DNA from: Holosporales bacterium | GTDB taxonomy: Bacteria; Pseudomonadota; Alphaproteobacteria; UBA3830; JAIRMZ01 | Assembly (NCBI GenBank): GCA_031266655.1 | Contig: JAISAP010000047.1 | Coordinates: 1-51,505 of the forward strand | Length of the DNA: 51,505 bases | Direction of reading: 5' to 3' | Shown: positions 24,089 to 51,505 of the stretch, piece after piece | Layout of the letters: each line of letters begins with the position of its first letter | Numbering within the stretch: position 1 is the first letter of the stretch | Translations under genes and position numbers: made by a program | Notes under the pieces: model-generated | The model's database searches: none | What the model saw: the letters and a program-made list of their open reading frames with translations, nothing else | Told to the model about the DNA's origin: nothing

Positions 24089-25732
24089 ATGAAGCAACGG
24101 AAGATTTTAGAGGCGATTGTTGTTGGCTCCTCAGGGGCTCTGAGTGCCTTTTCCGAGGTTGATGCAATGTGGTGGGATCTTGATTCCCTCCGGAGCGTGG
24201 CTGTTGTTCAAGGAGAATTAGTTACACCCTCTTCTCAGCCTGAAGAAGGTGTTGTGTTATGGCTAGGCACAGAGGCCGCTCATGCTTGGGGGCCTGATTG
24301 GCGCTTTAGCTTGTGTTACGTTGTTGTTCCCTGGAACATGGAGGTGCTGGGTGTGAGGTGCTTCGAAGGGTGTCACTTTCTCACCGCTGTTGTCTTCGAA
24401 TGGGGTTCTGCACCCCGAGTCATAGCAGAAAGAGCCTTCGCTGATTCCGGCCTTCAATCTTTCACTATTTTTGCGAGTGTGGGGGTTCTTGGAAACGAAT
24501 GTTTCGCAGATTGCCAATCTCTTGCCTGCGCCGTCTTTGAGGTTGGTTTTCCGCTCCGGACTATCGGGAAGGGGGTTTTCGCACGTTCTGGTCTGCAAGC
24601 ATTCACTATTCCCGCGGGCGTGGAGGTGCTGGCTGCAGGGTGCTTCGACAGTTGCCAATCTCTCACTTCCATCGTTTTTGAACAGGGTTCTAAACTTCTA
24701 GCCGTAGAAGAAAGGGCGTTTGCCGATACCGGTCTGCGATCCTTCACTATTTTTGCGAGCATAGAGGTGCTTGGGAAAGAATGTTTCGCAGGCTGCCAAT
24801 CTCTTGCCTGCGCCGTCTTTGAGGTTGGTTCTCCGATCCAGACTATCGGGGAGGGAGTTTTTGCCGGCTCTGGTCTGCAAGCATTCACTATTCCCGCGGG
24901 CGTGGAGGTGCTGGCTGCAGGGTGCTTCGACGGTTGCCAATCTCTCACTTCCATCGTTTTTGAACAGGGTTCTAAACTTCGAGTCATAGAAGAAAGAGCG
25001 TTTGCCGATACCGGTCTGCTGTTCTTCCATGTTTTTGCGAGTGTGAGGGTTCTTGGAAACGCATGTTTCGCAGACTGCCAATCTCTTGCCTACGTTACCT
25101 TTGAGGTCGGTTCTCCGCTCCAAACTATCGGAGAGGGAGTTTTTGCCCGCTCTGGTCTGCAAGCATTCACTATTCCCGCGGGCGTAGAGAAGATTGGAGA
25201 AGGCTGTTTTGCCTATTGCCAATCGCTTTCCAGTGTTGCCTTTGAGGGTGGTTCGCATCTCCAAACTATCGGGGAGGGAGTTTTTGCCGGCTCTGGTCTG
25301 CAAGCATTCACTATTCCCGCGGGCGTGAAGGTGCTGAGTGCAAACTGCTTTGCAGGTTGTCAACTTCTCACCGCCCTTGCCTTCGAACCGGGTTCTCAAC
25401 TCCGAGCCATAGGAAAAGCGGCCTTTATCGACTGCGCCAACTTGCCGTCCATTTGCATTCCCGCGGGCGTGGAGAAGATTGGAGAAGGCTGTTTTGCCTA
25501 TTGCCAATCGCTTTCCAGTGTTGCCTTTGAGGCTGGTTCGCATCTCCAAACTATCGGGGAATGTACCTTCCTTGCTTCCAGTATATGCTCCATAGGGATC
25601 CCCGCGAGCGTAGAGGAGATTGGGGAATGTTGTTTTCTGGATTGCCAATCGCTTGGCTCTGTCACCTGCAACAGTTCGCGATTTATCGTAGTGCGTCGAG
25701 GCTGTGGGTGGGAAGTTTATAAGCGCGAATGA
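24089..25732 (+). CDS. BspA-type leucine-rich-repeat protein (LRR_5-like), LRR1
   Basis: About 20 units of the ~23-24 aa repeat ..IPAGVEVLAAGCFDSCQSLTSIVFEQGSKLLAVEERAFADTGL.., with a 26-aa leader from the ATG at 24089 (the alternative ATG at 24077 is the track start). Nucleotide repeats are in 141/282-nt register. Confidence 0.88.
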   Translation: MKQRKILEAIVVGSSGALSAFSEVDAMWWDLDSLRSVAVVQGELVTPSSQPEEGVVLWLGTEAAHAWGPDWRFSLCYVVVPWNMEVLGVRCFEGCHFLTAVVFEWGSAPRVIAERAFADSGLQSFTIFASVGVLGNECFADCQSLACAVFEVGFPLRTIGKGVFARSGLQAFTIPAGVEVLAAGCFDSCQSLTSIVFEQGSKLLAVEERAFADTGLRSFTIFASIEVLGKECFAGCQSLACAVFEVGSPIQTIGEGVFAGSGLQAFTIPAGVEVLAAGCFDGCQSLTSIVFEQGSKLRVIEERAFADTGLLFFHVFASVRVLGNACFADCQSLAYVTFEVGSPLQTIGEGVFARSGLQAFTIPAGVEKIGEGCFAYCQSLSSVAFEGGSHLQTIGEGVFAGSGLQAFTIPAGVKVLSANCFAGCQLLTALAFEPGSQLRAIGKAAFIDCANLPSICIPAGVEKIGEGCFAYCQSLSSVAFEAGSHLQTIGECTFLASSICSIGIPASVEEIGECCFLDCQSLGSVTCNSSRFIVVRRGCGWEVYKRE

Positions 25733-25748
25733 CCAGGAAAGACTTCCG

Positions 25749-27392
25749 CTATTCTGATCTTTTCATAGGAGGAAGTCCGAGAATAGGGCCAGAACGCCTG
25801 ATCATCCGAGCAGCGACGACAGCGGCGTTCCATCCTGCTGCGGTATGACCGAAAGTTTGAGGAGTTGCTTTCGGCTCGTCTAACAGGACATAGACGAGAT
25901 AACGCGGAGAAGAGGCCGGGAAGGCGCCCACGAAGGTGCAGATGTTGGCATCCTTGCGGTATCCTCCTCTCTCTCTCACTTTCTCTGCTGATCCTGTTTT
26001 GCCAATGACAGAATACTCTTCCACTTCCGCTTTACGGCTTGTCCCTGCCGTCACAACCAGACGAAGAAGGGAACACACCTGGTGAGAGATTTTTTCCGAT
26101 AGGATGCGTCGTCCAGGTCCTGCCGACCCCGTCTTCAAGATCGTCGGGGTATGGTAGAGACCATTGTGGATGATACCCCCCACCACGGAAGCAAAGTGCA
26201 AGGGGTTGAATGCAATGCCATGTCCAAAGGCAATGGTTGCAGAGTTCACCTCTCCCCAAGACTTAGGATACAGCGGCGCCTGGATCTCACAGAGCTCGAA
26301 GGGAAGCGCCGACAACAGGCCTAGTTTCTGGAAAAAACTGCGTTGTGCTTTCGCGCCAATTTTCATCGCAATTTTGGCAGATCCGATGTTGGAAGACCGT
26401 GTTAAAATCTCCGCGACCGTCAAGGCACGTCCCTCTCTATGAAAATCGTGGATGGTGAAGCGTCCGATCCTGAGCGGTTCGCTGACATCAAATTGCGTGT
26501 GGATGGTCACCAACCCACTCTCCAAAGCCAGTGCCGTATTGATGATTTTGGCCGAGGAGCCAGGTTCAAAGACCGCGCAAGTCGCTCGATTGAAAAGCGC
26601 TTTCGTCGAAGCCGTCTTGACCTGATTGGGATCAAAATCAGGAAGAGACACTAACGACAGGATTTCCCCCGTTTCCAAATCCATCACAAGGCTCGCAGCG
26701 CCCAGAGCGTTAAATTCCTGCATTCCTTCGATGAGAATCTCGCGCACTGCGTGCTGCAGGGTCATATCTACCGACAGGGCGATGGGCTCCGAAGAAGAGG
26801 ACAGGGCGGCGTCAAACGCCTTTTCAGCTCCCGCAATTCCATGATTATCGGTGTCTGTGAGCCCAACAATATGGGCAAACAACGCCCCATCGGGATAAAC
26901 GCGTCGCTCTGTCTTCTGAAAGGACACTCCAGGAAGACCAAGTCGCAAGACCCTCTCCTGTTCGGTGGGCGTAAGATGGTGCTTGACCCAAACAAATCCT
27001 TTGGGAGAAGTAAAACGCCGCACAAGCTCTTCTGGATCGAGATCGGGGAGCGCCCTGGAAAGGCACCGCGCATCATTCACCGGATCGAGGAGATCTCTGG
27101 GATTGGCGTACACGGAAACCGTTGGCAAGCTCGTCGCAATGAGCTCTCCCTGGCGGTCCGTAATGTCTGAACGCGCAAATCGCGCAGGCGCTTCAAGGGA
27201 GGCAAAAGAAGTACCTTCTAGGGCTTCTCCAAAGACCATCACCTGGAAAAGCTTGGCGATGATGAGGCTCGCGAAAAACACAAAGACACTCATCCCGAGA
27301 ACAATGCGTTGCCGACGTTTTTCTACAGACTGGCGTAGCGATTCTCCGTACTTGTCCATTAAGTGCAGAAGATCGTGCATACCTGCCTTCAT
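25749..27392 (-). CDS. ftsI: Peptidoglycan D,D-transpeptidase FtsI (PBP3)
   Basis: N-terminal TM anchor and a transpeptidase domain with SSAK (SXXK), SSN and KTG motifs. It lies immediately downstream of ftsL. Confidence 0.92.
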   Translation of the reverse strand: MKAGMHDLLHLMDKYGESLRQSVEKRRQRIVLGMSVFVFFASLIIAKLFQVMVFGEALEGTSFASLEAPARFARSDITDRQGELIATSLPTVSVYANPRDLLDPVNDARCLSRALPDLDPEELVRRFTSPKGFVWVKHHLTPTEQERVLRLGLPGVSFQKTERRVYPDGALFAHIVGLTDTDNHGIAGAEKAFDAALSSSSEPIALSVDMTLQHAVREILIEGMQEFNALGAASLVMDLETGEILSLVSLPDFDPNQVKTASTKALFNRATCAVFEPGSSAKIINTALALESGLVTIHTQFDVSEPLRIGRFTIHDFHREGRALTVAEILTRSSNIGSAKIAMKIGAKAQRSFFQKLGLLSALPFELCEIQAPLYPKSWGEVNSATIAFGHGIAFNPLHFASVVGGIIHNGLYHTPTILKTGSAGPGRRILSEKISHQVCSLLRLVVTAGTSRKAEVEEYSVIGKTGSAEKVRERGGYRKDANICTFVGAFPASSPRYLVYVLLDEPKATPQTFGHTAAGWNAAVVAARMIRRSGPILGLPPMKRSE

Positions 27393-27396
27393 CCTC

Positions 27397-27750
27397 TTAG
27401 GGCTCTTTCCGCTGGGGGGCCTTCAAGACCTCCTCCTCCGCCTCGATGAGACTCCCAAGCGCGTCGCGCACAGGGGCAACGCGGAGAAAATCCTCTTTTG
27501 GCATCAGCTGCTTCGGCATGAGGGGCGCAAATCCCAAATGCTTCTGCGCTAGCTTCTGTACGCGCTGGGCATCGGTTGCATACTTCCATTCCGCCTTGAG
27601 CACGTGGTGCTGCTCTTCCTCCTTGTCGATGGCTCGCAAGAGAGCGCGCACATTCTCTTCGATCTCCACAACACGATACTTTGAGTAACACAGCACAAGA
27701 CCGCACAGTATGCCGAGAGATAAGAGTAAGAGGACAGATCTGCGCATCAC
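27397..27750 (-). CDS. ftsL: Cell division protein FtsL
   Basis: 117 aa, a single N-terminal TM segment (VLLLLSLGILCGLVLCY) and then a coiled coil. Located between rsmH and ftsI; its start overlaps the rsmH stop as ATGA. Confidence 0.8.
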   Translation of the reverse strand: MMRRSVLLLLSLGILCGLVLCYSKYRVVEIEENVRALLRAIDKEEEQHHVLKAEWKYATDAQRVQKLAQKHLGFAPLMPKQLMPKEDFLRVAPVRDALGSLIEAEEEVLKAPQRKEP

Positions 27751-28649
27751 GGCTGCTTCACGCCGACTCGCATTTTGGCCGAGCGCGCTCGCGGATGCAT
27801 GCGTTTTTCCTCCTCAGAAGGCGTCATGGGCTTTTTGTACAGAGGGGCGAAAGGGCCTTTCCCAGGGAGAGGCTTGCCTGAGATCGGATCGACAGGCGCC
27901 TCCGGTCCGTTGAGAAAGCGCTTCACCAGCCGGTCTTCCAGGGAGTGAAACGCGACCACGACCAATCGCCCCCCGGCCTTGAGGTACTTTTCCGCATGAA
28001 GGAGCGCCTTTTGCAACTCTCCCAACTCGTCGTTTACAAAAATCCGGAGGGCTTGAAAAGTGCGGGTCGCAGGATCTCTTAGGGGAGAACCCCGCACGAC
28101 AGAGGCGACAAGGCGCTGTAGATCCCAAGTCGTTTGCAAGGGCCGTTTACGGCGCGCCTCCACAATTTTCCTGGCAATAGCACGCGATTTGGGTTCTTCT
28201 CCGTAGGTCCACAAGATTTCCGAAATCTGCTCCTCCGGAAAAGTGTTCACCACCTCCGCAGCGGAGAGAGCGTTGGCGCCCATCCTCATATCCAGCGGAC
28301 CCTTTTTCTGAAAGGAAAATCCCCTCTCTGGTACGTCAATTTGCATCGCAGAAACCCCGAGATCTAGCACCATTCCATCAAGGGTTGTGTATCCCGCCCG
28401 AGCGAGCAGGGCGGGGATCTCTGAGAAGCAAGCTGTAAAAAATTGGAAGCGCTCTCCAAATTGCTCGCGCAACGACTGTGCATAAGGAAGAGCGGCCGAA
28501 TCCCGATCGCAGGCAAGAACGCGGCAGGTGCAGGAGGAGAGAAGAGCGCGGCTATACCCTCCCGCACCAAAGGTCCCGTCTAGGTACGCCCCCCCCTCTC
28601 TTGGAGCGAGCTGGGTGAGGAACTGAGAGAGTAAGACCGGTTTGTGCAT
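27747..28649 (-). CDS. rsmH: 16S rRNA (cytosine1402-N4)-methyltransferase RsmH (MraW)
   Basis: HKPVLL...YLDGTFGAGGYS...DLGVSAMQID...RGFSF...FHSLEDR: canonical RsmH blocks. The ATG at 28649 (MHKPVLL) is preferred over the track start at 28694. Confidence 0.95.
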   Translation of the reverse strand: MHKPVLLSQFLTQLAPREGGAYLDGTFGAGGYSRALLSSCTCRVLACDRDSAALPYAQSLREQFGERFQFFTACFSEIPALLARAGYTTLDGMVLDLGVSAMQIDVPERGFSFQKKGPLDMRMGANALSAAEVVNTFPEEQISEILWTYGEEPKSRAIARKIVEARRKRPLQTTWDLQRLVASVVRGSPLRDPATRTFQALRIFVNDELGELQKALLHAEKYLKAGGRLVVVAFHSLEDRLVKRFLNGPEAPVDPISGKPLPGKGPFAPLYKKPMTPSEEEKRMHPRARSAKMRVGVKQP

Positions 28650-28866
28650 AACTGGAAAAGAGCTCCCTCTGTTTCTACAAGCGCTCAAACGCATCCTCGT
28701 ACTCTAGCAGAAAAAGTCCCTCCTGCAGATGACGTCCTGAGCATGGGCTCTTCCTTCGATTTGACGTTCCTTCCCAGTGAAATTTACGGTTTTTTCATTC
28801 TCGTCACGTTAACTGTCTGCAACCTGTCCTGCGCCACGCGCACAGTCAAAAACAAAGGTGACAAAA

Positions 28867-30441
28867 ATGAAACAGCAAAGACGTTTAGGAACGATGGTCG
28901 CATGGGCTTTGGGAGTGCTGGGAGCATGTCCCGCAACTGAAGCGATGCGGCAGCTTCTGGAAGAGTCTCCCGACGGACAAGAGCGGGTTATCCTTCCCGC
29001 AGAGCTGAAAACGCTGCATGCGAGCCTTTTCGCCAATCACTTCGCTCCTTTCTCTGTTACTTTTGATCAGGGCTCTCGTTTTACGGAGATAGAAACACAC
29101 CTTTTCGCTTATTCCAGGATTCAGTCCGTTATCCTTCCCGCAAGCGTAGAAGTGCTTGAGGCAAGTTGCTTCGCCCATTGTCCATCGCTCATCTCCGTCA
29201 TGTTTGAAGCTGGTTCCTACCTGACCATCATCAGGGAGAATGTTTTCCAAGATTCTACTTTGCAGTCCATTGTGATCCCTGCGCGCGTGGAGGTCATGGG
29301 TGCACGGTGCTTCTCGGGGTGCCACTCGCTTGCTACCGTTGTCTTCGAAGCGGATTCCCGACTCGCGAGATTGGAGGAAGGCGTTTTCTGGAGCTCTAGC
29401 CTGCCCTCTCTCACCCTTCCGGCAAGCGTAGAGGTGATGGCAGAAAAGTGTTTTCAATTCTGTCAGTCTCTTGCTGCGCTTGCCTTTGAGACCGATTCTC
29501 GGTTGAGAAGCATAGAGGCGGACGCCTTTGCTTATTCTGGCTTGCCCTCTATCACCCTCCCAAGGAGTGTGGAAATGCTGGGAGTTGGGTGTTTCAGATA
29601 CTGCCGATCTCTTGTCTCCCTTGTCGTTGAGGAAGATTCTCGACTCGGAGATGTGGGAAGCGAAGCGTTTGCGGGAACGCTTTTGACAAGCATTGATTTC
29701 CCGGGTGGAGTGGCTCTTGGGGACTGTGTGTTTCAAGATTCTTGCATCCGAGAAATATACCTTGGAGGTGCCTTAGTGGACACTTCCAGTGACGCTTACG
29801 CAGGTGCCAAAATGCTGCAAAAACCGAAAGTGAGACAGGATGCACCACCCCCCAAGCCCTCTGAGGAGGGACGTTTGCAGGCACAGTTCCTCCTCAGCCA
29901 AATACAGGCCCAAGATCCGGCGTCTCCGATGGATACGAAAGAGATGCTGAAAGAGCTTTCCCCCCTCGTCCAGATGCGGAACCTAGAGGATCTGAACAAT
30001 GCCTTGGCTTCCTCCAGTTCTGGCGTTTCTGTGCACTCCGAGATGCATCTCCGGCAGCAAGGAGGGCTGCAGCGTACTGACCAACCTCTAGGTCTGGCTC
30101 TCGACGGAACAGGACCCTTTCAGAGCGCCAAAGAAGGCCTCTTGGGCAAATCCGCGGGCCTCTCCCTCCAAGATTGGTCCTTGCCGCAAGGGGGTCAGGG
30201 GATGGAAACCGGCGATGGCTCCCATGATGCGATTCCTGCTTCAGGGGCCTTCCGAACTGGGGTCTCGGGGGAGGGTGGATTGAGCATAATTGCCTCAGGC
30301 ACTCTGGAGCGCTCTCCCACAGATCTTGCCCACGAACTTTCCGAAATGATCCGCGCCCAATACGCTGCCAGTACCAAAGTCCTCTCTACCCTCGACGATA
30401 TGCTCGATATGTGCAACGTATCAGACGCGCCAAATGCCTGA
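28867..30441 (+). CDS. BspA-type LRR protein with a non-LRR C-terminal domain, LRR2
   Basis: AAAGGTG lies 6 nt upstream of the ATG at 28867 (the track start is the GTG at 28858). 26-aa leader MKQQRRLGTMVAWALGVLGACPATEA|M. About 11 LRR units (..LPASVEVMAEKCFQFCQSLAALAFETDSRLRSIEADAFAYSGL..) followed by ~210 aa with no repeats. Confidence 0.85.
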   Translation: MKQQRRLGTMVAWALGVLGACPATEAMRQLLEESPDGQERVILPAELKTLHASLFANHFAPFSVTFDQGSRFTEIETHLFAYSRIQSVILPASVEVLEASCFAHCPSLISVMFEAGSYLTIIRENVFQDSTLQSIVIPARVEVMGARCFSGCHSLATVVFEADSRLARLEEGVFWSSSLPSLTLPASVEVMAEKCFQFCQSLAALAFETDSRLRSIEADAFAYSGLPSITLPRSVEMLGVGCFRYCRSLVSLVVEEDSRLGDVGSEAFAGTLLTSIDFPGGVALGDCVFQDSCIREIYLGGALVDTSSDAYAGAKMLQKPKVRQDAPPPKPSEEGRLQAQFLLSQIQAQDPASPMDTKEMLKELSPLVQMRNLEDLNNALASSSSGVSVHSEMHLRQQGGLQRTDQPLGLALDGTGPFQSAKEGLLGKSAGLSLQDWSLPQGGQGMETGDGSHDAIPASGAFRTGVSGEGGLSIIASGTLERSPTDLAHELSEMIRAQYAASTKVLSTLDDMLDMCNVSDAPNA

Positions 30442-30520: not shown

Positions 30521-31117
30521 TTACTCAGGAGAAGGAGTCCAGAGTATAGGTAGTGCTCCATCATTCGGAGTATTGAGCCGTGGCCCAATAACAGTGGGCT
30601 GCGACGGCTTAGCCGCCTTGAAGTTCAACGGAGCCGGATAACGATAGCGCCTACGATGGCCTCCCTCCGCCCGAAGAAGGGCAAGATCTCGTAGCCTCGC
30701 ACACTCTCCACGAGAGTTCTCATTGAACAGTGCCCCTGTGTGTCTGTTCAAATCATCGTACCTCCCATCCCTCGTTAAATTAAGATATCTGCTTTTCGTA
30801 GGACTATCGGCTCCCATGGGCAGCAACACTGCCGTAGCTTCGTTCGGAATTGAATAGAATGCCCAAGTCCTCTGATGATCCAATGTCTCTCCATTCCAAA
30901 TGACTGTCAGATCTACACGCCCAAACCTCGACTTCAAGCTGTCACCAACAGCTTCCTGTTTATTCATGTTTCTCGCTCGTATGACCACTTGGCCTGGCAG
31001 AAGGAATCTCATCTCCGATTGATCGTTCTCCGACTGGGAAGAATCGGGAGACATGGCCTGCGCAACCATTCCATAGCAAAACAGCACCCCTAACATCGAT
31101 CCTAATATTTTTCTCAT
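30521..31117 (-). CDS. Small exported protein of unknown function
   Basis: Leader MRKILGSMLGVLFCYGMVAQA|M from the ATG at 31117. Track ORF starts at 31234 inside an extremely AT-rich spacer. No recognisable domain. Confidence 0.65.
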   Translation of the reverse strand: MRKILGSMLGVLFCYGMVAQAMSPDSSQSENDQSEMRFLLPGQVVIRARNMNKQEAVGDSLKSRFGRVDLTVIWNGETLDHQRTWAFYSIPNEATAVLLPMGADSPTKSRYLNLTRDGRYDDLNRHTGALFNENSRGECARLRDLALLRAEGGHRRRYRYPAPLNFKAAKPSQPTVIGPRLNTPNDGALPILWTPSPE

Positions 31118-31439
31118 TGTCTTTTCCTTTATTTTAATACAGTACATTTCGTACCATAATATACATATAGTGAAAAAAATAAAAAAGACAAGCAGAAAAA
31201 AATATAATGGACAAAAGTCGTCGAGTTTTGGCAATTTCTTCGGAAGGCAGAGTTTCGCCTATGCTGCGCGCAGCGAGGCCTCCCAAGGGACCTACACTGC
31301 TGACCAAGAAGGGTATGAGACAGAGTCATGAGATATGCATACTCCACCCTATCCATTCCCACTGCGAAAATCTGTGTTTCTATAGCTTGTTCTACCGGAG
31401 AATTCGTACATAATGCACAGCAGACAGAGGCAACGAACC

Positions 31440-42591: not shown

Positions 42592-42595
42592 GCGT

Positions 42596-43561
42596 TTACG
42601 CGGATGCGCAATGTTGGGATGCTTCTCCCACAGGAAGAAATGACAAGGGGGAGACGGAGGCGGGGGTTCCTTGGAGAGGATAGGTGAACTCCCAGCTCTC
42701 TGGGCGCGCCATGAGCTCCGATACGAGTTGTGCGCTAAGGGCGTGCCCCGGGCGGTTCCCTGAAAAGTGCGCGACAAGAGGGGCTCCAAGAAGGGCCAAA
42801 TCTCCCAAGACATCCAGGACTTTGTGCCGAACAATCTCGTTTTTGAAGCGCAGTCCACCAGGATTGAGGGGTTTTCCTTCTGAAAACACCACGGCATTCT
42901 CCAACGAGGATCCTTTCGCAAGACCTTGCGCTCGCAGCGCTGTCACCTCCTCAAAAAAGCCAAAACTACGCGCGGGCGCGATGTCCCGGAAAAAAGACTG
43001 TGTCGTGAGGGCGGATTCGTAGCTCTCCGGAGGAACCTGGTGCGCGCTATAATCGCACGCGACAGAGACTGAAAAGCCAGAGGATGCGGGAAACAGGGCT
43101 TCCTTCCGATTTCCCTCTTGGACTTCAATCGGTTTACAGATACGCAAAAAGCGGCGCTGCGCCTTTTGTACAAGCCGACCCGCTTTCTGAAGGGCCTGCA
43201 CGTAGGGGCGTGCGCTTCCATCGAGAATCGGCACTTCCTCCGATGTCAGCTCGATGACAGCGTTATCGATGCCATACAAGAAGAGCGCGGCAAGTAGGTG
43301 TTCCACGGTTTGAACACATACCCCCTCCGCATTTCTCAGCGTTGTGCAGAGAGCACTTCTCTCCACCCATTTATGATGCACGGGAATACGGTTCTCTCGA
43401 TCGGTAACATCCGCACGTACAAAAACAAGCCCACTCCCTTCAGGAGCCGGCTGAATCTTCATACGCGCATGCCTGCCCTGATGCGTCCCTACGCCCTCAA
43501 AAGCAATAAGCTCCCGAACAGTTCCCTGGAGGGGAGAAGTAAACACATCTACCACGGACAC
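42596..43561 (-). CDS. lpxC: UDP-3-O-acyl-N-acetylglucosamine deacetylase
   Basis: FEGVGTHQG..., TVEHLLAALFLYGIDNAVIELTSEEVPILDGSARPYV, and RHKVLDVLGDLALLG with a His/Asp zinc site pattern. Confidence 0.93.
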   Translation of the reverse strand: MSVVDVFTSPLQGTVRELIAFEGVGTHQGRHARMKIQPAPEGSGLVFVRADVTDRENRIPVHHKWVERSALCTTLRNAEGVCVQTVEHLLAALFLYGIDNAVIELTSEEVPILDGSARPYVQALQKAGRLVQKAQRRFLRICKPIEVQEGNRKEALFPASSGFSVSVACDYSAHQVPPESYESALTTQSFFRDIAPARSFGFFEEVTALRAQGLAKGSSLENAVVFSEGKPLNPGGLRFKNEIVRHKVLDVLGDLALLGAPLVAHFSGNRPGHALSAQLVSELMARPESWEFTYPLQGTPASVSPLSFLPVGEASQHCASA

Positions 43562-43654
43562 CTAGTGCTGTATGGACTATCAATGCGCCCATCATAAGGG
43601 AAAAATGACTCTAGAGTGTTGATTGCTTGTTACAAATTGTTGCAGCCTCCGAGA

Positions 43655-43669
43655 GGATTGCATTTTGCA
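43655..43669 (+). promoter_or_regulatory. Weak candidate sigma-54 -24/-12 element
   Basis: aGGattgcattTTGCa has GG-N10-GC spacing identical to the TGGCACG-N4-TTGCW consensus. The -12 half matches well and the -24 half poorly. It lies about 55-65 nt upstream of ORF 43723/43735. Confidence 0.2.
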
Positions 43670-43722
43670 TTTAATTAAATAATTTTTTAACTATTTAGTC
43701 GCATAATCCAAAAAAAACGGAA

Positions 43723-44280
43723 ATGGAGACTTCCATGAGGAAAAGTATACTATGCTTTGCGGCAATATCGTGCGCGTTCATGAGTTTTGGGATGCAGCAG
43801 GATCCAGAGAGAGGGACCCTGATAGACCTCCAGCAAGCACCTGTTCTGCATCGTACGCTTTCCATGGATCCTCCCCCCGATCGTCCTGATCAGGCACAGC
43901 TTCCAGAGGAAGAGTTTCCCATGCAACTTTTGGCGGAAAGTCGGTGCGTTCTCTGGTGTTTGCGATTTGGTACCACCTGCTGTTTCCTTTCGCGGAATGT
44001 TCTCAACATTCTTTCCGTACTTCTTTACACCACGGCGAGCGGCCTCCTTATCGTACCCGAAAAGCTGACAGACGATTTCTCCACTCTGAAATGGTGCAAT
44101 ATAGCGGCTGTTTTTATGGTTGCAGGTGCCGCTGCCTCTCGAGAACTGGCCATACGCGCGCAAGATCACGTGATCAACAACGAGCGAGAATATGCCCGCA
44201 TCATGGAGTACCAGCGACAACAGCAGCAGCGGCAGACAGCGGAACTTGAAGGACAAACACCCGCTGCCACGGAAGTATGA
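43723..44280 (+). CDS. Hypothetical membrane/exported protein with a Gln-rich tail
   Basis: Leader MRKSILCFAAISCAFMSFG|M (the ATG at 43735 is the likely start). Two or three further hydrophobic segments (VLWCLRFGTTCCFL, ILSVLLYTTASGLLIV, IAAVFMVAGAAA) and a tail YQRQQQQRQTAE. Preceded by a very AT-rich spacer. Confidence 0.55.
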   Translation: METSMRKSILCFAAISCAFMSFGMQQDPERGTLIDLQQAPVLHRTLSMDPPPDRPDQAQLPEEEFPMQLLAESRCVLWCLRFGTTCCFLSRNVLNILSVLLYTTASGLLIVPEKLTDDFSTLKWCNIAAVFMVAGAAASRELAIRAQDHVINNEREYARIMEYQRQQQQRQTAELEGQTPAATEV

Positions 44281-44373
44281 GACTAAGACACGACGTAACC
44301 TGATTAAAAAGGGAGCAGTGCGTGCGTTCTGAAGCTATCCAGGGTAGAATGTTCTGTCCTGGAGGAAAAGACT

Positions 44374-44790
44374 ATGGATTGGACGCAGCGCATTCTTGTG
44401 ACACGTACTCTGGCCATGCCGGCAGATACGAACCCGAGAGGGGATATTTTTGGTGGGTGGATTGTTTCTTTAATGGATATTTCCGTGGCAGCTATGTCTT
44501 CTCGCTTTGCCAGAGGACTGACGGCTACACGTGCTATCCGTCAAGTTCTCTTTGATCGCCCGATTTTCGTGGGAGACGAAATCTCTGTTTACGTCAAGCT
44601 CGAGAATGTCGGGCATACATCGATGACCTTTGAGGTGGATGTAACCGTCCAGCGGAGCGGCTTGGAAGAGGAACTTCCCGCCGTACGCGGAACCTTCATC
44701 ATGGTTGCGCTAGATAAAAACAGGCGTCCCCGCCGGGTGAACTGCTGTGAGCTCCCTCATCACCAGGGGGAGACGAAGGGTCGCTGCTGA
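44374..44790 (+). CDS. Acyl-CoA thioesterase, hotdog fold (YciA-like)
   Basis: LAMPADTNPRGDIFGGWIVSLMD...GDEISVYVKLENVGHTSMTFEVDV...FIMVALD: the typical YciA-type thioesterase pattern. Confidence 0.8.
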   Translation: MDWTQRILVTRTLAMPADTNPRGDIFGGWIVSLMDISVAAMSSRFARGLTATRAIRQVLFDRPIFVGDEISVYVKLENVGHTSMTFEVDVTVQRSGLEEELPAVRGTFIMVALDKNRRPRRVNCCELPHHQGETKGRC

Positions 44791-44796
44791 GGGAGC

Positions 44797-45783
44797 CTAT
44801 CGCCAAGAAAGCGCAGAGGGCATAGCGCGTTCCTCCTCCTTCAGAAGGTCGAGCACCTCTGGGTAAGCCTGAATGACGGCGGAGCTCTGTCGTACAAAGC
44901 GACCCATGGGAGATCCCGAGACGGGATGCGATAAGTATAGTTGCTTCAAGTCTTTCCACCCCCTCTCCAGAACGTGGATCTTTGTTCCCTTGCGTATAGC
45001 CATGACCCAACACCAAGTCTCTTCGTCATAGGGGGCAAGCTTGGAGGCGATGTCCATGCGGAAGACATCGTCATGCAGCGTATGCGGCGGATACAGCACG
45101 CCACTCGATGTCGAGGGGACGTATAAAAGGGAGGGTTCCTCGTCCTTATCGACTTCAAGAAAGGGCCCATGACGCACCCAGTGGTAGAATTCTCCGCCCA
45201 CAAAGGAGCGATAGACCGTTCGAGCATGGATGCAAGTGGGCCTTTTCTGGTAGGCCGAAAACAGTCCCTCCAGCCAATCGGGAGAGTACATCATGTCGTC
45301 ATCGGCAATCACCAGGATGTCTTCCGGGTAGTCCCGCAAAGCGGGGATGATCTTCTTCCGTGAGTTCAGATTTTCGCACCACCGAATAGACAGGCCGCAT
45401 TGGCACAAGTGGAGGAGCTCATCTGGCAAATCGTATTCCTTATGAGGAAATTCCTCTTCCGCAAGCCACAAAAGGACGGCATCGGGCTTTAAAGATTGCG
45501 TGAGCAACGTGTAAATCGCCGCGTAAATCTGTCGGATCCGCGGAGGATGAGAAGAAAGGGAGACGATTAGCCGAGGCGTAGGTCGAGGAGGCGTTTGCAG
45601 ACCCCCTGCCTTTAAGCGATAGAGCTTGATGCGTGTTTCCTGCAGACGCACGCGCGTTGTGTAACCCTGCCAAGCAGGTCTTATGGAGTTTATCAGGTGG
45701 TGGAGGAAGGGAGTCCTGTAGAAAACCGTGCGCGCCACCTCCTTCCACAGGCGCCGATCGGCGTACCGCTCCTCCTCCCTCAT
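44797..45783 (-). CDS. Putative DXD glycosyltransferase, paralog of 7701..8702
   Basis: RLIVSLSSHPPRIRQIYAAIYTLLTQSLKPDAVLLWLAEEEFPHKEYDLPDELLHL...KKIIPALRDYPEDILVIADDDMMYSPDWL aligns throughout with 7701..8702. The ATG at 45783 overlaps the upstream GT4 stop as ATGA. Confidence 0.6.
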   Translation of the reverse strand: MREEERYADRRLWKEVARTVFYRTPFLHHLINSIRPAWQGYTTRVRLQETRIKLYRLKAGGLQTPPRPTPRLIVSLSSHPPRIRQIYAAIYTLLTQSLKPDAVLLWLAEEEFPHKEYDLPDELLHLCQCGLSIRWCENLNSRKKIIPALRDYPEDILVIADDDMMYSPDWLEGLFSAYQKRPTCIHARTVYRSFVGGEFYHWVRHGPFLEVDKDEEPSLLYVPSTSSGVLYPPHTLHDDVFRMDIASKLAPYDEETWCWVMAIRKGTKIHVLERGWKDLKQLYLSHPVSGSPMGRFVRQSSAVIQAYPEVLDLLKEEERAMPSALSWR

Positions 45784-46910
45784 AAAGAGGATTCCGCTAT
45801 GGCTTCCGTGATCACACTTTTCCAAAGTTGGCGATTGCGATCCTCCGAAAAACGCTCCGGAAGACGGCGCGCATTGCGACTGAGACGTTGACGCTCCTCT
45901 GGATGGTCTATTAAGAAGGCTATCTTTTCCGTCAAAGCAGCCCCATCTCCCACAGGAACAAGCAAGCCATCGATGCCGTCTCGCACAAGCGTTCTGTTCC
46001 CAAGGCAGTTGGAGGCGACAACGGGAAGTCCGACCGCCATCGCTTCGCAGAGCGCATTGGGAAACCCCTCATGGCGCGAGGGAAAAGCGAACAAATCCGC
46101 ACGAGCAAGCATCTCTTCTATCTCCGTCGTTGCTCCCGGAAGGGAAACACGATCCTCCACCTTATACGCCCGAATCTTTTGCTCCAAGAAGACCCTATAG
46201 GGCCCTTCCCCGTAGAGAGTCAACTGGAGAGAGGGATGGCTGGGAAAAAGTTGCACGCAGCTCTCGAGCAGCAGATCAAACCCCTTGTCGGCATCCAGCC
46301 GTCCGGAAGACACGAGAAAACGCACATTTTTGCGGATCGTGCAATGCTTGGAGGGAGAACGCACCCCATTAGGGATCACACAGATGTTCTTCTGGAGAGA
46401 CCGAGGAAAGTAAGAAGCCACTGTGGGAGTTTGCACCACTACTTTTCGCGCCCATCTATAGGTTCTTCGACGCAGTGCATCGCAAAAGCGCCCTATCTTG
46501 TACATAAAGGGGTCCGAGCGCTCTGCAACGATGACGGGCGCGCCCAGCCCGCGACTAACCAGGAGCGTCAGGATGTTGGTGATATCCACGTAGGAAATAA
46601 TCACGTGAGGGCGAAACGCCCTTAAGGCGTGCCGAAGAGCGACCATGCACAAAAAACGCCGTAGAGAAGCGCAGAATCTCTCAGCGAGGAAATGATCTTT
46701 CAGGAAGCAGAGACGCACCCGAGCATCGAGCGGATAGACCGGCGGATTTTTTGAAGATGTAAAAGCGAAAATACAGACTTCTTTCTCCTCTGAGGCCCAG
46801 AAATTGGCGCATACGGAGAGGTCTCGCTCTGCTCCCCCGAGGCCTAGGGAGGAAATGACAAAGGCTAGCCGCTCCTGCTTGGTTCCGAGCGCGCCGACTC
46901 GAGCAATCAC
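45780..46910 (-). CDS. Glycosyltransferase family 4 (group 1 / GT-B)
   Basis: C-terminal FAFPSRHEGFPNALCEAMAVGLPVVASN...LV (E-X7-E-type motif) and an N-terminal SLGLGGAER. The start is a GTG that overlaps the upstream stop. Confidence 0.85.
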   Translation of the reverse strand: MIARVGALGTKQERLAFVISSLGLGGAERDLSVCANFWASEEKEVCIFAFTSSKNPPVYPLDARVRLCFLKDHFLAERFCASLRRFLCMVALRHALRAFRPHVIISYVDITNILTLLVSRGLGAPVIVAERSDPFMYKIGRFCDALRRRTYRWARKVVVQTPTVASYFPRSLQKNICVIPNGVRSPSKHCTIRKNVRFLVSSGRLDADKGFDLLLESCVQLFPSHPSLQLTLYGEGPYRVFLEQKIRAYKVEDRVSLPGATTEIEEMLARADLFAFPSRHEGFPNALCEAMAVGLPVVASNCLGNRTLVRDGIDGLLVPVGDGAALTEKIAFLIDHPEERQRLSRNARRLPERFSEDRNRQLWKSVITEAIAESSL

Positions 46911-47644
46911 GATGTCAGGTGTTTTTCGAGAAAATCACAGGCCTTTTGCAGGCTTTCAGGATCGATGCTATGCCCCATATTGGGAACCAGCAAGGCCTCA
47001 AAGGGAATCTGCTGCGCCCGCAAAGCTTCTTGTGTTTGAAAGAAATATTGTGTCCGCAGGACGGAATCAGAATCTCCATGGACCAGCAGGATAGCGGGAA
47101 GAGAGGGGCTTTTCTGCACATCAGGGTCTACGAGAACACCGGAGAACGAAACCACCGCGCGGACTCCCTCCTGCAACCCAAAGTGCAGCGCCATCATCGC
47201 TCCTTGGGAGAACCCGACAAGCGCCACATCCTGCAGAGTCAGGTGACGTTCCTTGAGAAGGGGGAGCAGGTAATCCTCAAAGCGTTTTTTCACTTGTGCA
47301 AGCTGCACTTTCCACTCTGGGAGCGTCCAGTTTCCCATCTTGAACCATTGCCGTCCCCCTCCTCCCGCTTCGCAGGGGTCGAAGGCGTGAGGAAGGAGCA
47401 CTTCTGCCTCTGGGAGCGTCTTGGAGATCTCGTACCCGATGGGCCAGAGGTCCTCCGCACTGGCTCCGTACCCATGCATGACGATGATCAGCTTTTTCGG
47501 AGATTTTCCTTCTTTGGGCGCAAAAACCGCTCCCTCCATGCGTCCTCCTTTCTGCAGGTGCTTCTTGGGGTCCTGCGATGGCCACCAAAGGAACAGCGCT
47601 CCTCCTACCGCAAGCGCTAATAGAGCATACAGAGAACGCCGCAT
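46907..47644 (-). CDS. Phospholipase/carboxylesterase-family alpha/beta hydrolase with an N-terminal membrane anchor
   Basis: LIIVMHGYGASAEDL, GFSQGAMMAL (GXSXG), LLVHGDSDSVL, and a late His. The ATG at 47644 (MRRSLYALLALAVGGALFLWW) is preferred over the track start at 47797. Confidence 0.8.
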   Translation of the reverse strand: MRRSLYALLALAVGGALFLWWPSQDPKKHLQKGGRMEGAVFAPKEGKSPKKLIIVMHGYGASAEDLWPIGYEISKTLPEAEVLLPHAFDPCEAGGGGRQWFKMGNWTLPEWKVQLAQVKKRFEDYLLPLLKERHLTLQDVALVGFSQGAMMALHFGLQEGVRAVVSFSGVLVDPDVQKSPSLPAILLVHGDSDSVLRTQYFFQTQEALRAQQIPFEALLVPNMGHSIDPESLQKACDFLEKHLTS

Positions 47645-48090
47645 TCCTTCCACCACAAAAGTCCGGAGCAAACACTCCAACCGCAGAATATGGGAAAAGC
47701 GAAGGGAATGCGACGCTGATGGGAGATCCAACAGCGCAGGCATCCGACGCTCCCTACAAGGATGAGGAACAAGGGGAGGGAGGATACAGGCAACCACAAG
47801 CTACAGAGGCTGAGTAGCTTCATGTCCCCTGCTCCTAGGAGGGGTTTTCCCAGGAAACGGGGGAGGATCTTGCACAGCGATACTGCGCCTCCTCCCAGCA
47901 GGCACAAGCTTTCCCAAAAGAAAGGAACGCACCAGGCGTGCGCTACGCTCAGCAGGAAAAACCAGAGGAGAGCGCTTTCCGGGAGCGTCTGTGTGCGTTC
48001 ATCCTGGAGCACCAGGTTTTTCCAGGGGAGTAAAGTGAGAAACAAACACGCTGTCCGCGCCGTTTCTTCGTAGGGAAGGAGAGGATCCAT
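47617..48090 (-). CDS. CpaA/TadV-like A24 prepilin peptidase (short form)
   Basis: 157 aa polytopic membrane protein. It has an Asp in VLQDERTQTLPE and the second catalytic motif LGAGDMKLL (compare GGGDVKL). No other pilus genes lie in the window. Confidence 0.5.
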   Translation of the reverse strand: MDPLLPYEETARTACLFLTLLPWKNLVLQDERTQTLPESALLWFFLLSVAHAWCVPFFWESLCLLGGGAVSLCKILPRFLGKPLLGAGDMKLLSLCSLWLPVSSLPLFLILVGSVGCLRCWISHQRRIPFAFPIFCGWSVCSGLLWWKECGVLCMLY

Positions 48091-48241
48091 GCGGGGCTTT
48101 TCCTGAAATACCGTTGGAAAGTGAAGCTACCAAAGAATTCTTTCCAAGACCATGTCGGTAGAGCTCCCTTCGATTTTTACCGTGTTGATTTTTAAAAATC
48201 TTTCGCCATACTGTTTACTTCCAATATCAAGCGAGAAAATA

Positions 48242-49543
48242 GTGACTATACGAAAAATTTTATATGCAACTTCTCTGTTTACCGCAGGAGTGCTGAGCGT
48301 CTTTCCTGAGGCTGGAGCAATGCAGAGATGGGAAGAACCCTCTGATGGATGGTTCCTTGCTTTTAGGAATGAGGTCGCTTGGCAGGGAATAGCCCTCATG
48401 CCTTTTGGACCCGAAAGTATGATCGAGGGTACTCCACGCTATCCTGGTTTGCAGCGCATCTTTATTTCTGCATGCATGGAGGCGCTTGGAGGGTGTTGTT
48501 TCGCTGGGCTTCAAGCCCTCTCCCATATCGCTTTTGAGGCTGGTTCTCGAGTTACGTGTATGAACACGGGTGTTTTCCAGGGGTCCGCCTTGCAGGCCAT
48601 ATGTATTCCCGCGCCTGTAAAGAAACTCGGGAAATGTTGTTTTTCGCACTGTTCGTCTCTTACCTGCGTTACTTTCAGTTCCCCTTCTCAACTCGCAGTC
48701 ATTGGAGAATATACGTTTTCTAAAACAGCGCTGAGCTTCCTCAATCTCCCGTTTCATCCCTCATATGACATAGAGGTTGGGATCTGCCCATTTGACGAGT
48801 CTAGCATCGTGAGGATATGTATCGGAGGAGAGCCTGTGGACCCTCAGACTGGTCTGTACGCTGGCACCGGCATTGTGCGAGACGTAACGATTCACCAAGA
48901 GCTTCCGTCTTACTGCTTTGCAAGTTGCCGCTCTCTCACTTCTGCCACCTTTAAGCCTGATTTTTCCCCTGCAACGATAGAGTCGTACGTCTTCTACAGG
49001 TCTGGTTTGCGGAGCGTGACAATCCCCGCAAGTGTGGAGACGATCATGCAAAGATGTTTTTCAGCTTGTACCTCCCTTGCTTTCGTTGCCTTTGATGCTG
49101 GTTCCCGGCTCACGCGTATAGAGCCTTACGCTTTCTGTAATACTGCCCTTCCAAGTATCGTGATCCCCGCAAGCGTAGAAACCATCATGAAAAGATGTTT
49201 CGCTCAGTGTCAGTTTCTTATCTCTTTTTCTTTCGAGGCCAGTTCCCGACTCACGGAGATGGGAGAAGGCGTTTTTTTCTGTTCTAATTTGAGGAACATA
49301 GCCGTTCCTGCGGGCGTTACGGCGCTCAGGAAAGAGTGCTTCTTCAGTTGCCCTTTTCTTATTCACGTTACTTTTGGAGCTGGTTCCCAACTCAAAAGCG
49401 TATGCGCAGACGCTTTCTCCAGAAGCCCTCAGGCACAAGTTCTTCTTCCGGATAGAAAGAATTACTCTTCCAAGCAGCTTAGTTCGGGTTGGACGTTGGA
49501 GGAGGAATTAGGCAAGAGCCCCAGCTCATCCACTCCCTCGTGA
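48242..49543 (+). CDS. BspA-type LRR protein, LRR4
   Basis: The in-frame GTG at 48242 gives the 26-aa family leader (TIRKILYATSLFTAGVLSVFPEAGA|M); track ORF starts at 48152. The N-terminal block WEEPSDGWFLAFRNEV is shared with LRR5, followed by LRR units (..IPASVETIMQRCFSACTSLAFVAFDAGSRLTRIEPYAF..). Confidence 0.85.
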   Translation: MTIRKILYATSLFTAGVLSVFPEAGAMQRWEEPSDGWFLAFRNEVAWQGIALMPFGPESMIEGTPRYPGLQRIFISACMEALGGCCFAGLQALSHIAFEAGSRVTCMNTGVFQGSALQAICIPAPVKKLGKCCFSHCSSLTCVTFSSPSQLAVIGEYTFSKTALSFLNLPFHPSYDIEVGICPFDESSIVRICIGGEPVDPQTGLYAGTGIVRDVTIHQELPSYCFASCRSLTSATFKPDFSPATIESYVFYRSGLRSVTIPASVETIMQRCFSACTSLAFVAFDAGSRLTRIEPYAFCNTALPSIVIPASVETIMKRCFAQCQFLISFSFEASSRLTEMGEGVFFCSNLRNIAVPAGVTALRKECFFSCPFLIHVTFGAGSQLKSVCADAFSRSPQAQVLLPDRKNYSSKQLSSGWTLEEELGKSPSSSTPS

Positions 49544-50860
49544 GGGCTGAAGAAGGTATCCTGTTGGTGTCTGATTCAGGGAAGCGCGTTGCCAGCCCTG
49601 GTCTAGCCGTACTGCGGAGCGTACCTCTCCCTCTGGAGGAAGAGCGACCTGTGCCTGAGGGCTCCCAGTAAAGGCACCTGCTTCTATCTCTTCCAGTCGA
49701 GAAGCAACCTCAAAGGCGATGAAGGTGAGGGAAAAACAACTTGCGAAGCATTGTTTCCTCAGTATTGTAACACCTCTAGGAATAATAATATTTAGTATGC
49801 CAGAATGGGCAAAAGCGCCCTTTTTTATTTGCGCAACCCTAGAATGCACGCCAAAGGAAACAGAGGTAAGAGATAAGCAATCCATAAAACACCATTCCCC
49901 AAGCACTTCTACACCATCGGGAAGCACCATGGAGCGCAAACCAGCACGGAAGAAAGCTTTCTCTCCAACAACTCTGAGTTGGGAATTTTTCACAAAGTTA
50001 AAACAGGCAAGAGCAAGACAATGAGAGAAACATCCTTTGTCAAGCTTCCCAACGCCTGCGGGTAGGTCGATAGACTGATCGCGGGTGCCTTGAAAAGCGC
50101 CCCCTTTTATGATCATGAGGCGGGAGCCGGCTGCAAAGGTAATATCGACCAGGGGTGAGCAATAGAGGAAACACTCTTTCTCGATCCTCTCTACGCTCGC
50201 GGGAATCGTCACAGACTGTAAACCGGAAGTGTTGAAAACGCTCTCTCTGAGGATTGTGAGTGGAGAACCTACTCTGAAGGTAACGAAGGCAAGGGACTGG
50301 CACTGTACGAAACATCCTTTACCAATCTCCCTTACGCTCATGGGAAGTGTAGCGGAATGTAAGCCGGAATGAGAAAAAGCATACTCCCCTATCTCCATGA
50401 GCTGGGAACCGAATTCAAAGGCGGCGTGAGCAAGCGAGGAACAGCGCGAAAAGCAAGAGTATCCAAGCGTCTCCACGCTCGCGGGAAGACAAATGGAACT
50501 CAAGCTGGAGCAGCCTCTAAAGGCGCTCTGCTCTACCGTCACGAGCTGAGAATTGGCTTCAAAGGCAACGAAGATAAACGAGAGGCAATCAGCAAAGCAC
50601 GCTTCTTCAAGCTTCCCGACGCTCGCGGAAATGCAGAGGCACTGTAGACCAGGATGGCGCGGAGCATGCTGTGCATCTTCAGGAAGCTCAGAAGCAAGGA
50701 TGCGCATCCCCCACCGCATCACTGTATTCCTAGAAGCGAGGAACCATCCAAAGAGAGACTCTTCCCAGATCTTCGGCTGCATCGCCTCCGCCTTGGAGAG
50801 GGTCCCTAGCACTCCCAACATCAATAGAGAGCATGACTTTAAAATCTTTCGTTTCTTCAT
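49526..50860 (-). CDS. BspA-type LRR protein, LRR5
   Basis: Leader MKKRKILKSCSLLMLGVLGTLSKAEA|M, then the WEESLFGWFLASRNTV block, then ~14 LRR units. Its 3' end overlaps LRR4 by 18 nt (convergent). Confidence 0.88.
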   Translation of the reverse strand: MKKRKILKSCSLLMLGVLGTLSKAEAMQPKIWEESLFGWFLASRNTVMRWGMRILASELPEDAQHAPRHPGLQCLCISASVGKLEEACFADCLSFIFVAFEANSQLVTVEQSAFRGCSSLSSICLPASVETLGYSCFSRCSSLAHAAFEFGSQLMEIGEYAFSHSGLHSATLPMSVREIGKGCFVQCQSLAFVTFRVGSPLTILRESVFNTSGLQSVTIPASVERIEKECFLYCSPLVDITFAAGSRLMIIKGGAFQGTRDQSIDLPAGVGKLDKGCFSHCLALACFNFVKNSQLRVVGEKAFFRAGLRSMVLPDGVEVLGEWCFMDCLSLTSVSFGVHSRVAQIKKGAFAHSGILNIIIPRGVTILRKQCFASCFSLTFIAFEVASRLEEIEAGAFTGSPQAQVALPPEGEVRSAVRLDQGWQRASLNQTPTGYLLQPSRGSG

Positions 50861-50924
50861 GATTAGAGTATTCCTACTACGTGCAGTGTACTTGCGATGA
50901 CGTGTAATGCGAATAGTGCCCCAA

Positions 50925-51505
50925 CTAATGGGGGTTCATTCTCCTGGCGCACCCATGAGTGAACCTGACTCCGAGGAACGTAGCCAGCGTCTCTTGGGAC
51001 TGGAAACCAGGATTACAAATTGCTCTCAAGTTTTCGGGAATGCTAGAAACCTTCACACGGGATTCATAGAAAGCTTTCGTCCCTACTCTCTTGAGCTGGG
51101 AACCGGATTCAAAGGTGATGTGATCAAGAGAGTGGCAAGACAGGAAGCACTTTTCTCCAAGCTCCTCTACGCTCGCGGGAATATAAATGGAATTCAAGCT
51201 GGAGCAGTGCGCGAAAGCGGACTCTTCTATTCGCGCGAGCTGGGAACCGGATGCAAAGGTAACGACGGAAAGAGAGCCACAATATAGGAAGCACTCTTTT
51301 CCAAGCCCCTCTACGCCCACAGGAATACCAATGGATCCCAAGCTGAAGCAGCTTGCAAAAGCGGATTCTTCTATCCTCTCGAGCTGAGAATGGGACTCAA
51401 AGGTCACGACAGAAAGCGAGCGGCAATATTTGAAGCACTCTTTTCCAAGCCCCTTTACGCTCGTGGGAATGCAAATAGAACTCAAGCTGGAGCAGTCTGC
51501 AAAAG
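50925..51505 (-). CDS. BspA-type LRR protein, LRR6 (partial; 5' end beyond the window)
   Basis: The frame stays open to the window edge. Units ..IPTSVKGLGKECFKYCRSLSVVTFESHSQLERIEESAFASC.SL.. lie in tandem with LRR5. Confidence 0.8.
   Translation of the reverse strand, partial: FADCSSLSSICIPTSVKGLGKECFKYCRSLSVVTFESHSQLERIEESAFASCFSLGSIGIPVGVEGLGKECFLYCGSLSVVTFASGSQLARIEESAFAHCSSLNSIYIPASVEELGEKCFLSCHSLDHITFESGSQLKRVGTKAFYESRVKVSSIPENLRAICNPGFQSQETLATFLGVRFTHGCARRMNPH

Follow-up and report, generated by a model that had tools for sequence, protein, structure and literature searches.

An apparently lineage-private family of BspA-type (LRR_5) leucine-rich-repeat proteins with predicted export leaders in a Holosporales bacterium

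Six open reading frames (ORFs) in a 51,505-nt stretch of DNA from a Holosporales bacterium (contig JAISAP010000047.1 of assembly GCA_031266655.1; hereafter the window) encode leucine-rich-repeat (LRR) proteins of the BspA/TpLRR type and, judged from their sequences, belong to a lineage-private family of exported LRR_5 proteins. The Holosporales are an alphaproteobacterial lineage living only in association with eukaryotic cells, and the family probably represents exported or surface-located protein-binding solenoids that this obligate symbiont uses for host interaction. The evidence for the repeat class, the predicted export and the distribution of the family is presented below, followed by the alternatives.

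Repeat class and fold of the six LRR proteins

A six-frame ORF listing and translation of the window recovered all six LRR ORFs that an earlier note on this DNA had described, and hmmscan against Pfam, the check which that note had asked for, assigned every one of them to LRR_5 (PF13306, 'BspA type leucine rich repeat region') with E-values from 1e-104 to 2e-41 and scores of 141–346 bits, against a gathering score of 27.7 bits (five- to twelvefold). Four of the genes lie on the + strand: LRR1 (24077/24089–25732; E 1e-104, 345.8 bits), LRR2 (28858/28867–30441; E 8.9e-53, 178.0 bits), LRR3 (31413/31440–33002; E 1.5e-92, 306.5 bits) and LRR4 (48242–49543; E 2.9e-51, 173.1 bits), the last with a GTG start and an upstream ATG at 48152 that is also open. 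The two on the − strand are LRR5 (49526–50860; E 8.8e-85, 281.4 bits) and LRR6 (50925 to beyond 51505; E 2.1e-41, 141.2 bits), which is cut by the window end and represents the 3′ part of a family member whose N-terminus lies past that end. The 3′ ends of LRR4 and LRR5 are convergent and overlap by 18 nt. When the six proteins were searched against the window by tblastn, LRR-homologous DNA was confined to these six genes, the merged intervals, which take in the non-LRR tail of LRR2, amounting to 8,092 nt (15.7% of the window). The internalin-like class LRR_8 scored 17–22 bits in the LRR ORFs in the Pfam hmmscan, below its cut-off of 27.

The repeat motif given in the earlier note was confirmed, but its length of 23–24 aa was not: the motif as written there spans approximately 46 residues, and what actually recurs is a 47-aa double LRR, composed of one 'CFxxCxSL' and one 'AFxxSGL' repeat in alternation (consensus xxIPASVExLGxxCFxxCxSLxxVxFExGSxLxxIxExAFxxSGLxS). 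The corresponding DNA period found by Tandem Repeats Finder (TRF) is 141 nt, with periods of 141, 282 and 423 nt overall (all three in LRR3) and 144 nt in LRR6. A hidden Markov model (HMM) of the unit located 40 double units, namely ten in LRR1 (24323–25666), five in LRR2 (28987–29691), nine in LRR3 (31680–32933) and six in LRR4 (48464–49426, interrupted by an insert module) on the + strand, and seven in LRR5 (49661–50632) and at least three in LRR6 (51051–51476) on the − strand.

LRR5 showed sequence matches in the PDB to 4fs7, 4gt6, the pneumococcal PcpA (4cp6), TpLRR of T. pallidum (6mlx), 4h09, 4fdw, 4fd0 and 4oju. For LRR5, AlphaFold2 (AF2) with an alignment of 15 sequences gave a model (mean predicted local distance difference test score, pLDDT, 88; predicted template-modelling score, pTM, 0.83) with 16 short strands spaced 23–24 residues apart, forming a solenoid over aa 73–414. 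In a Foldseek search of the PDB, this model matched 4fs7 first (E 5e-12; template-modelling score, TM, 0.62/0.71), and the top ten matches were all LRR_5 structures, ahead of generic LRR ectodomains; TpLRR was matched too. Since sequence, motif and fold all agree, the six ORFs are BspA/TpLRR-type (LRR_5) proteins, as the earlier note had proposed.

Predicted leaders and conserved modules outside the repeats

Inspection of the n-, h- and c-regions, together with the −3/−1 rule, indicated N-terminal leaders in LRR1–LRR5, each with a basic n-region, a hydrophobic stretch of 12–16 residues, in many cases with ..LGVLS/G.., and a short c-region whose last residue is small (SEVDA, ATEA, KPEA, EAGA and KAEA are examples); the general pattern of the family is an M(K/R)-rich n-region, ..LGVL(S/G).. 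in the h-region and ..EA at the end of the c-region. The predicted leaders, each followed by Met at position +1, are MLLKMKQRKILEAIVVGSSGALSAFSEVDA in LRR1 (aa 1–30, + strand, Met+1 at 24167), MKQQRRLGTMVAWALGVLGACPATEA in LRR2 (+ strand, from the ATG at 28867, Met+1 at 28945, with a possible lipobox LGAC), MGQHKGFRTISVLILGVLSVPSKPEA in LRR3 (+ strand, from the ATG at 31440, Met+1 at 31518), (V)TIRKILYATSLFTAGVLSVFPEAGA in LRR4 (+ strand, Met+1 at 48320) and MKKRKILKSCSLLMLGVLGTLSKAEA in LRR5 (− strand, Met+1 at 50782). They appear to be Sec-type leaders, which would fit exported adhesin- or effector-like proteins.

Between leader and repeats lies a short, variable N-terminal segment. Alignment bore out a pre-repeat block common to LRR4 and LRR5 that had been noticed earlier (QRWEEPSDGWFLAFRNEVAW and KIWEESLFGWFLASRNTVMRW, respectively, followed by PRYPGLQ and PRHPGLQ); in the family alignment the block of LRR4, on the + strand, reads WEEPSDGWFLAFRN..PRYPGLQ. 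An insert module (F/LP..V..G..VF....I..IY.GG...D...G.YAG...L..VTIP) was found in LRR2 and LRR4 and in the outside homologues P0001, P0400 and P0410 described below, and a C-terminal cap (C-cap, SPQAQV.LP ... QL.QGW) in LRR3 (SESPQVQLSLF), LRR4 (SRSPQAQVLLP..QLSSGW), LRR5 (GSPQAQVALP..RLDQGW), P0001 and P0410. No anchor domain was found in the LRR proteins.

Lineage and distribution of the family

The CTP synthase (PyrG) of the window is 79–84% identical to four proteins, with the next match at 61%; three of the four come from metagenome-assembled genomes (MAGs) labelled 'Holosporales bacterium' at NCBI, and the fourth (P0282) is an unlabelled protein from the Joint Genome Institute (JGI). A MAG of this kind is likewise the source of the best outside match of LRR5 (P0001, 39%) and of the nearest relatives of the LRR2 tail. 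A profile search with the aligned family added P0400 (728 aa) and P0410 (511 aa) from Holosporales MAGs as well as P0004 and P0403 from JGI metagenomes. A leader with Met at +1 is common to P0001, P0410, P0400, P0004 and P0403; P0001 and P0410 stand in tandem beside a core oxidoreductase gene, and P0004 adjoins a phasin gene.

The earlier note had regarded six copies as a strong enrichment, and this received support in that no homologue of the LRR family was present (E ≤1e-5) in 160 rsmH-centred loci of other Alphaproteobacteria covering 2.07 Mb, a limited control made up of distant relatives (≤56% identity) from genome and metagenome contigs. In two related MAGs (L163, L164) the gene order around pyrG differs from that of the window and no LRR gene lies within reach of pyrG; together with the reduced division cluster described below, this difference in order indicates that the window genome is heavily rearranged.

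An independent Logan assembly of run SRR14710922 is identical to window positions 38152–50553, which include LRR4 and most of LRR5, so that misassembly is ruled out where LRR4/LRR5 join the core genes. Besides the organism of the window, the Logan assembly of this run (L166 and L165) holds a second, related Holosporales genome, which carries the tandem P0001 and P0410; as both genomes are in SRR14710922, two clade members co-occur in one sample. Literature searches on this run and on the JGI samples yielded no habitat.

LRR2 and its flagellar tail

Only the N-terminal 60% of LRR2 is LRR, the 3′ 40% being a flagellar-gene remnant. Compared with LRR4, P0001, P0400 and P0410, the LRR part (28858–29820, + strand; G+C content at third codon positions, GC3, 0.52) breaks off inside the insert module (..IYLGGALVDTSSDAYAGAKML), and the tail (29875–30441, + strand; GC3 0.60, core-like) is an in-frame flgD and flgE relic. 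It consists, all on the + strand, of an FlgD N-terminal motif (~29875–30042; Pfam FlgD 29.1 bits, cut-off 27), an N-proximal piece of FlgE (~30013–30204) from which 17 aa are missing after 'LDG.G', and the C-terminal D0 helix of FlgE (~30205–30408; Flg_bbr_C 28.9 bits, cut-off 23) without the 'HA' of AQHAYAAN and the final ELERL. The tail is not a complete FlgE: approximately 380 central residues are absent, the N-proximal piece is gapped, and the NCBIfam FlgE match (E 1.6e-14) reaches 53 bits against cut-offs of at least 365. An exhaustive search of 1.84 billion representative proteins with the LRR2 tail returned only true FlgE proteins and no other LRR-Flg fusion, a related Holosporales MAG supplying the closest of them, a set of FlgE paralogues (71% identity over the last 68 aa by BLASTP). 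LRR2 is most simply read as a truncated LRR gene that deletions have joined to the decayed remains of flgD and flgE, and would then be a snapshot of flagellar loss; because the relic tail has core-like GC3, the fusion is considered native to the genome.

The related MAG itself carries at least five FlgE paralogues, P0272–P0276 (MDR1267231, -233, -268, -583 and -063), with near-identical C-termini and variable central domains, several of whose N-termini are Ser/Gly-rich and not the canonical rod motif; such an expansion is unusual for a hook gene.

Age, constraint and origin of the genes

Paralogue pairs within the family share 30–46% aa identity. LRR5 and LRR6, adjacent on the same strand, do form the tandem pair that the earlier note recognised, but at 45% aa identity and 68–71% nt identity over approximately 300 nt the recent local duplication that it proposed is not supported, and the gene duplications in the family are old. 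Repeats within the genes, by contrast, duplicate or convert, and in LRR1 have done so recently: TRF found 282-nt higher-order repeats at 80–87% identity in this gene, and two 104-nt copies at 25172 and 25457 are 98% identical. Older pairs of internal units had ratios of nonsynonymous to synonymous substitution rates (dN/dS) of 0.2–0.6, and the youngest pair had a ratio close to 1; the LRR sequences are thus under constraint as coding sequence, and all of the ORFs are intact.

GC3 was 0.49–0.56 in the LRR genes, 0.43–0.53 in neighbouring small secreted ORFs and 0.54–0.65 in core genes. In comparisons with the family profile, the Bacteroidota-like protein P0401 scored as high per residue as clade members did, and leaderless homologues with a different interruption module scored lower than P0401. 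One leaderless homologue, P0003, shares its contig with genes for eukaryote-type protein kinases, which points to a protist as its probable source. The profile scores do not favour a transfer of the LRR genes from a eukaryote to the symbiont, and since the nearest non-clade homologues mix protist-like and Bacteroidota-like proteins, such a transfer is neither supported nor excluded by these sequences.

A methionine after the predicted cleavage site

The first residue of the predicted mature protein is Met in all ten of the window's accessory secreted ORFs, and likewise in five of five clade homologues. The ten comprise LRR1–LRR5 and five small ORFs with a Sec-like leader and no Pfam or NCBIfam match, designated unkA (20734–21660, +), unkB (22178–23116, +), unkC (23230–23817, +), unkD (30521–31120, −) and unkE (43735–44280, +), with leaders ending in ..KGEG, ..KGGG, ..KGSS, ..AQA and ..SFG before the Met; the housekeeping LptA falls outside this pattern (..SKEA followed by VKAP). 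The c-regions of the accessory leaders are unusually charged ([SP]K.[EG][AG], also given as [SP]K[AGP][EG][AG]), and their DNA is purine-rich. A predicted duplex with the anti-Shine-Dalgarno sequence of −6 kcal/mol or stronger was found at 6/10 of the internal ATGs at leader ends; among 118 internal in-frame ATGs of core genes, used as controls, the share was 18%.

This leader-Met signature might provide a second start, serve as a sorting motif or be a by-product of codon content. The bolder proposal, that at least five unrelated accessory families (LRR_5, unkA/unkB, unkC, unkD and unkE) use a special leader with either a built-in second start or a clade-specific cleavage or sorting tag, is on present evidence distinctly unlikely. 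Were the second start real, each gene would yield a Sec-exported isoform and a cytoplasmic isoform open to a type VI secretion system (T6SS) or a flagellar-type exporter; if true, this would be a previously undescribed marking of symbiont host-interaction proteins, and the signature is the one element of the locus that could prove new.

unkA and unkB are paralogous orphans (40% aa identity) with similar, AT-rich upstream regions, and they occupy the lowest-GC stretch of the window (0.45–0.47), between ntrY and LRR1. The AF2 model of unkA, from a two-sequence alignment, had a pLDDT of 47, too low for the model to be of use.

Function of the family and alternative explanations

In the proposed role, the leader would carry each LRR protein across the inner membrane, after which the protein would reside in the periplasm, be displayed on the outer surface or be released. 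Its concave β-sheet, variable at non-scaffold positions, would then bind a protein from the host or from a host-derived compartment, in the way that BspA, PcpA and other LRR_5 proteins at bacterial surfaces bind theirs. The earlier note had suggested a host-interaction repertoire of adhesins or effectors; the host-dependent lineage and the predicted Sec-type leaders fit that suggestion, but LRR_5 is also abundant in free-living gut bacteria. Several points weigh against the proposed role. Because the domain class is plentiful in free-living gut Bacteroidota and Firmicutes, it is by itself no proof of host interaction; the window contains no secretion-system genes; the 'Holosporales' label is the depositors' taxonomy; Sec export of the proteins is a prediction from the n-h-c pattern and the −3/−1 rule; and the low GC3 of the LRR and accessory genes fits a foreign origin or weak expression equally well.

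It is possible, although unlikely, that the LRR proteins are instead effectors that enter the host cytosol through a T6SS or flagellar-type export as leaderless isoforms begun at the cleavage-site Met, with the Sec form being a second isoform or not the relevant one. The constancy of that Met in the ten accessory ORFs and five clade homologues would suit such a start, as would the Shine-Dalgarno-like purine runs at six of the ten internal ATGs (18% of the 118 core controls), and a review of the Holosporales considers the T6SS the most credible effector route and flagella a possible additional secretion system (PMC11909080). However, the leaders are conserved as protein across paralogues and genomes and are therefore taken to be translated and under selection, the purine-rich c-region may merely reflect codons for K, G, E and A, and genes for T6SS or flagellar export are not in the window. 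We see a slimmer chance that the proteins act for the bacterium itself, in its envelope or in contacts between bacteria, as a periplasmic or surface scaffold or in co-aggregation, without a specific host ligand. The LRR genes do adjoin ftsI-ftsL-rsmH, lptCAB, lpxC and glycosyltransferase genes, LRR_5 proteins are, as stated, common in free-living gut bacteria, and BspA also mediates bacterial co-aggregation (PMC4206474). Against this, the 160 other alphaproteobacterial loci have the same envelope genes and zero homologues, and the flanking genes, spread over different strands, are not operon partners in a common orientation. The family is, moreover, private to a host-dependent clade and fast-diverging, with paralogues at 30–46% identity and 39% to the best match in a related MAG, compared with approximately 80% for PyrG.

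Decaying or selfish repeat DNA without function, or a contaminant or misassembly derived from Bacteroidota or protists, is highly improbable. LRR2 is truncated and fused to flagellar debris, the accessory genes have atypical GC3, and both the Logan contig and the window end inside an LRR gene, all of which could be read in that way. But five of the ORFs are long and intact, and comparison of units gave dN/dS values below 1; several MAGs retain the leader, insert module and C-cap; two independent assemblies place the LRR genes in one stretch with core genes; and the core-like GC3 of the relic tail marks the fusion as native. Exported solenoids serving host interaction thus remain the probable reading.

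Gene neighbourhood

The rest of the window consists of ordinary proteobacterial core genes, and the earlier description of the LRR genes as scattered among core genes was accurate, alphaproteobacterial core genes flanking them. These core genes include mfd, def, bamE, ftsB, kdsA, pyrG, secG, rne and ntrYX; ftsI-ftsL-rsmH, an acetoacetate-CoA ligase gene, tRNA-Leu and three mevalonate-pathway genes; and lptCAB, rpoN, lpxC and glycosyltransferase genes. The division/cell-wall cluster (25749–28694, −) is reduced to rsmH-ftsL-ftsI; LRR1, on the opposite strand, occupies the usual place of murE after ftsI, and LRR2, also on the opposite strand, lies upstream of rsmH. A Peptidase_A24 (prepilin peptidase family) gene of 157 aa (47617–48090, −) is located directly upstream of LRR4 on the opposite strand. 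Prepilin-type (class III) leaders that this peptidase might process were considered and rejected, as the hydrophobic stretch precedes the junction between G/A and M and does not follow it.

Most Alphaproteobacteria use the methylerythritol phosphate (MEP) route and not the mevalonate route. In the window (33050–38867), the acetoacetate-CoA ligase gene (NCBIfam, 891 bits) lies near a mevalonate cluster of GHMP kinase, diphosphomevalonate decarboxylase and mevalonate kinase. Two paralogous ORFs of approximately 335 aa (7701–8702, − and 44797–45825, −) both adjoin envelope genes and show a faint Glycos_transf_2 signal (E 0.002–0.015); they are probably a clade-specific glycosyltransferase pair. 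The rne gene contains a 119-nt direct repeat (13868–14163, +; 82% identity, 177-nt spacing) in the part encoding the C-terminal, non-catalytic portion of RNase E. A presumed remnant of an IS1595-type transposase at 19837–20217 (−) was dropped, since neither Pfam nor NCBIfam gave a match there with the E-value limit relaxed to 1.

Comparison with known systems

Holosporales are major, poorly understood obligate symbionts of protists and animals whose effectors are essentially unknown, and the 2025 review of the group contains neither the word 'leucine' nor 'LRR' (PMC11909080). The LRR family provides a concrete candidate host-interaction set for an uncultured, apparently multi-species clade, and the shared leader signature could be used to mine the rest of that clade's exported proteins. 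Repeat-protein expansion in symbionts is familiar; the lineage and the private features are new, the principle is not, and the family leaves the understanding of BspA-type proteins and of symbiont genome evolution unchanged.

BspA of Tannerella forsythia and TpLRR, including the structures 4fs7 (Bacteroides ovatus), 4gt6, 4h09, 4cp6 and 6mlx, share with the proteins described here the Pfam family, the approximately 23-aa motif IPxSVxxIGxxAFxxCxxL and the predicted right-handed solenoid, and an N-terminal export signal is predicted here too. Unlike them, the present family has no BACON, Big_2, choline-binding, type IX secretion system (T9SS) or cell-wall anchor domains; its repeats strictly alternate as a 47-aa super-repeat with the cysteine pair of CFxxCxSL; and its leader, insert module and C-cap are clade-private. 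The bearer is an alphaproteobacterial symbiont and no gut or oral anaerobe. The BspA-like families of Trichomonas, Entamoeba, Histomonas and diplomonads belong to the same repeat class, and leaderless LRR_5 proteins (P0003 and others) are among the nearer homologues; however, the eukaryotic proteins lack a bacterial leader and have an interruption module of their own (..EEGNxNFxxSGxFLLD..IRYFG).

The amoeba symbionts 'Candidatus Amoebophilus asiaticus' and 'Candidatus Jidaibacter' carry eukaryote-like repeat proteins (LRR, ankyrin and tetratricopeptide repeat, TPR), and their families are mostly of other LRR classes, with many members thought to be translocated by dedicated secretion systems. 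These show the same general expansion of repeats in obligate protist symbionts, whereas the family described here is LRR_5 with predicted Sec-type leaders.

'Candidatus Mycoplasma girerdii', a mollicute tied to Trichomonas vaginalis, has 26 BspA-like genes (PMC4206474), compared with six copies in 51.5 kb of genome here. It likewise represents an LRR_5 expansion in the small genome of a eukaryote-associated bacterium, with variable lengths, some signal peptides and assemblies that break at these genes, but most of its members have C-terminal transmembrane anchors, which are absent here. Among known systems, this 26-member mollicute family and the BspA/TpLRR proteins found in host-associated bacteria come closest to the family described here.

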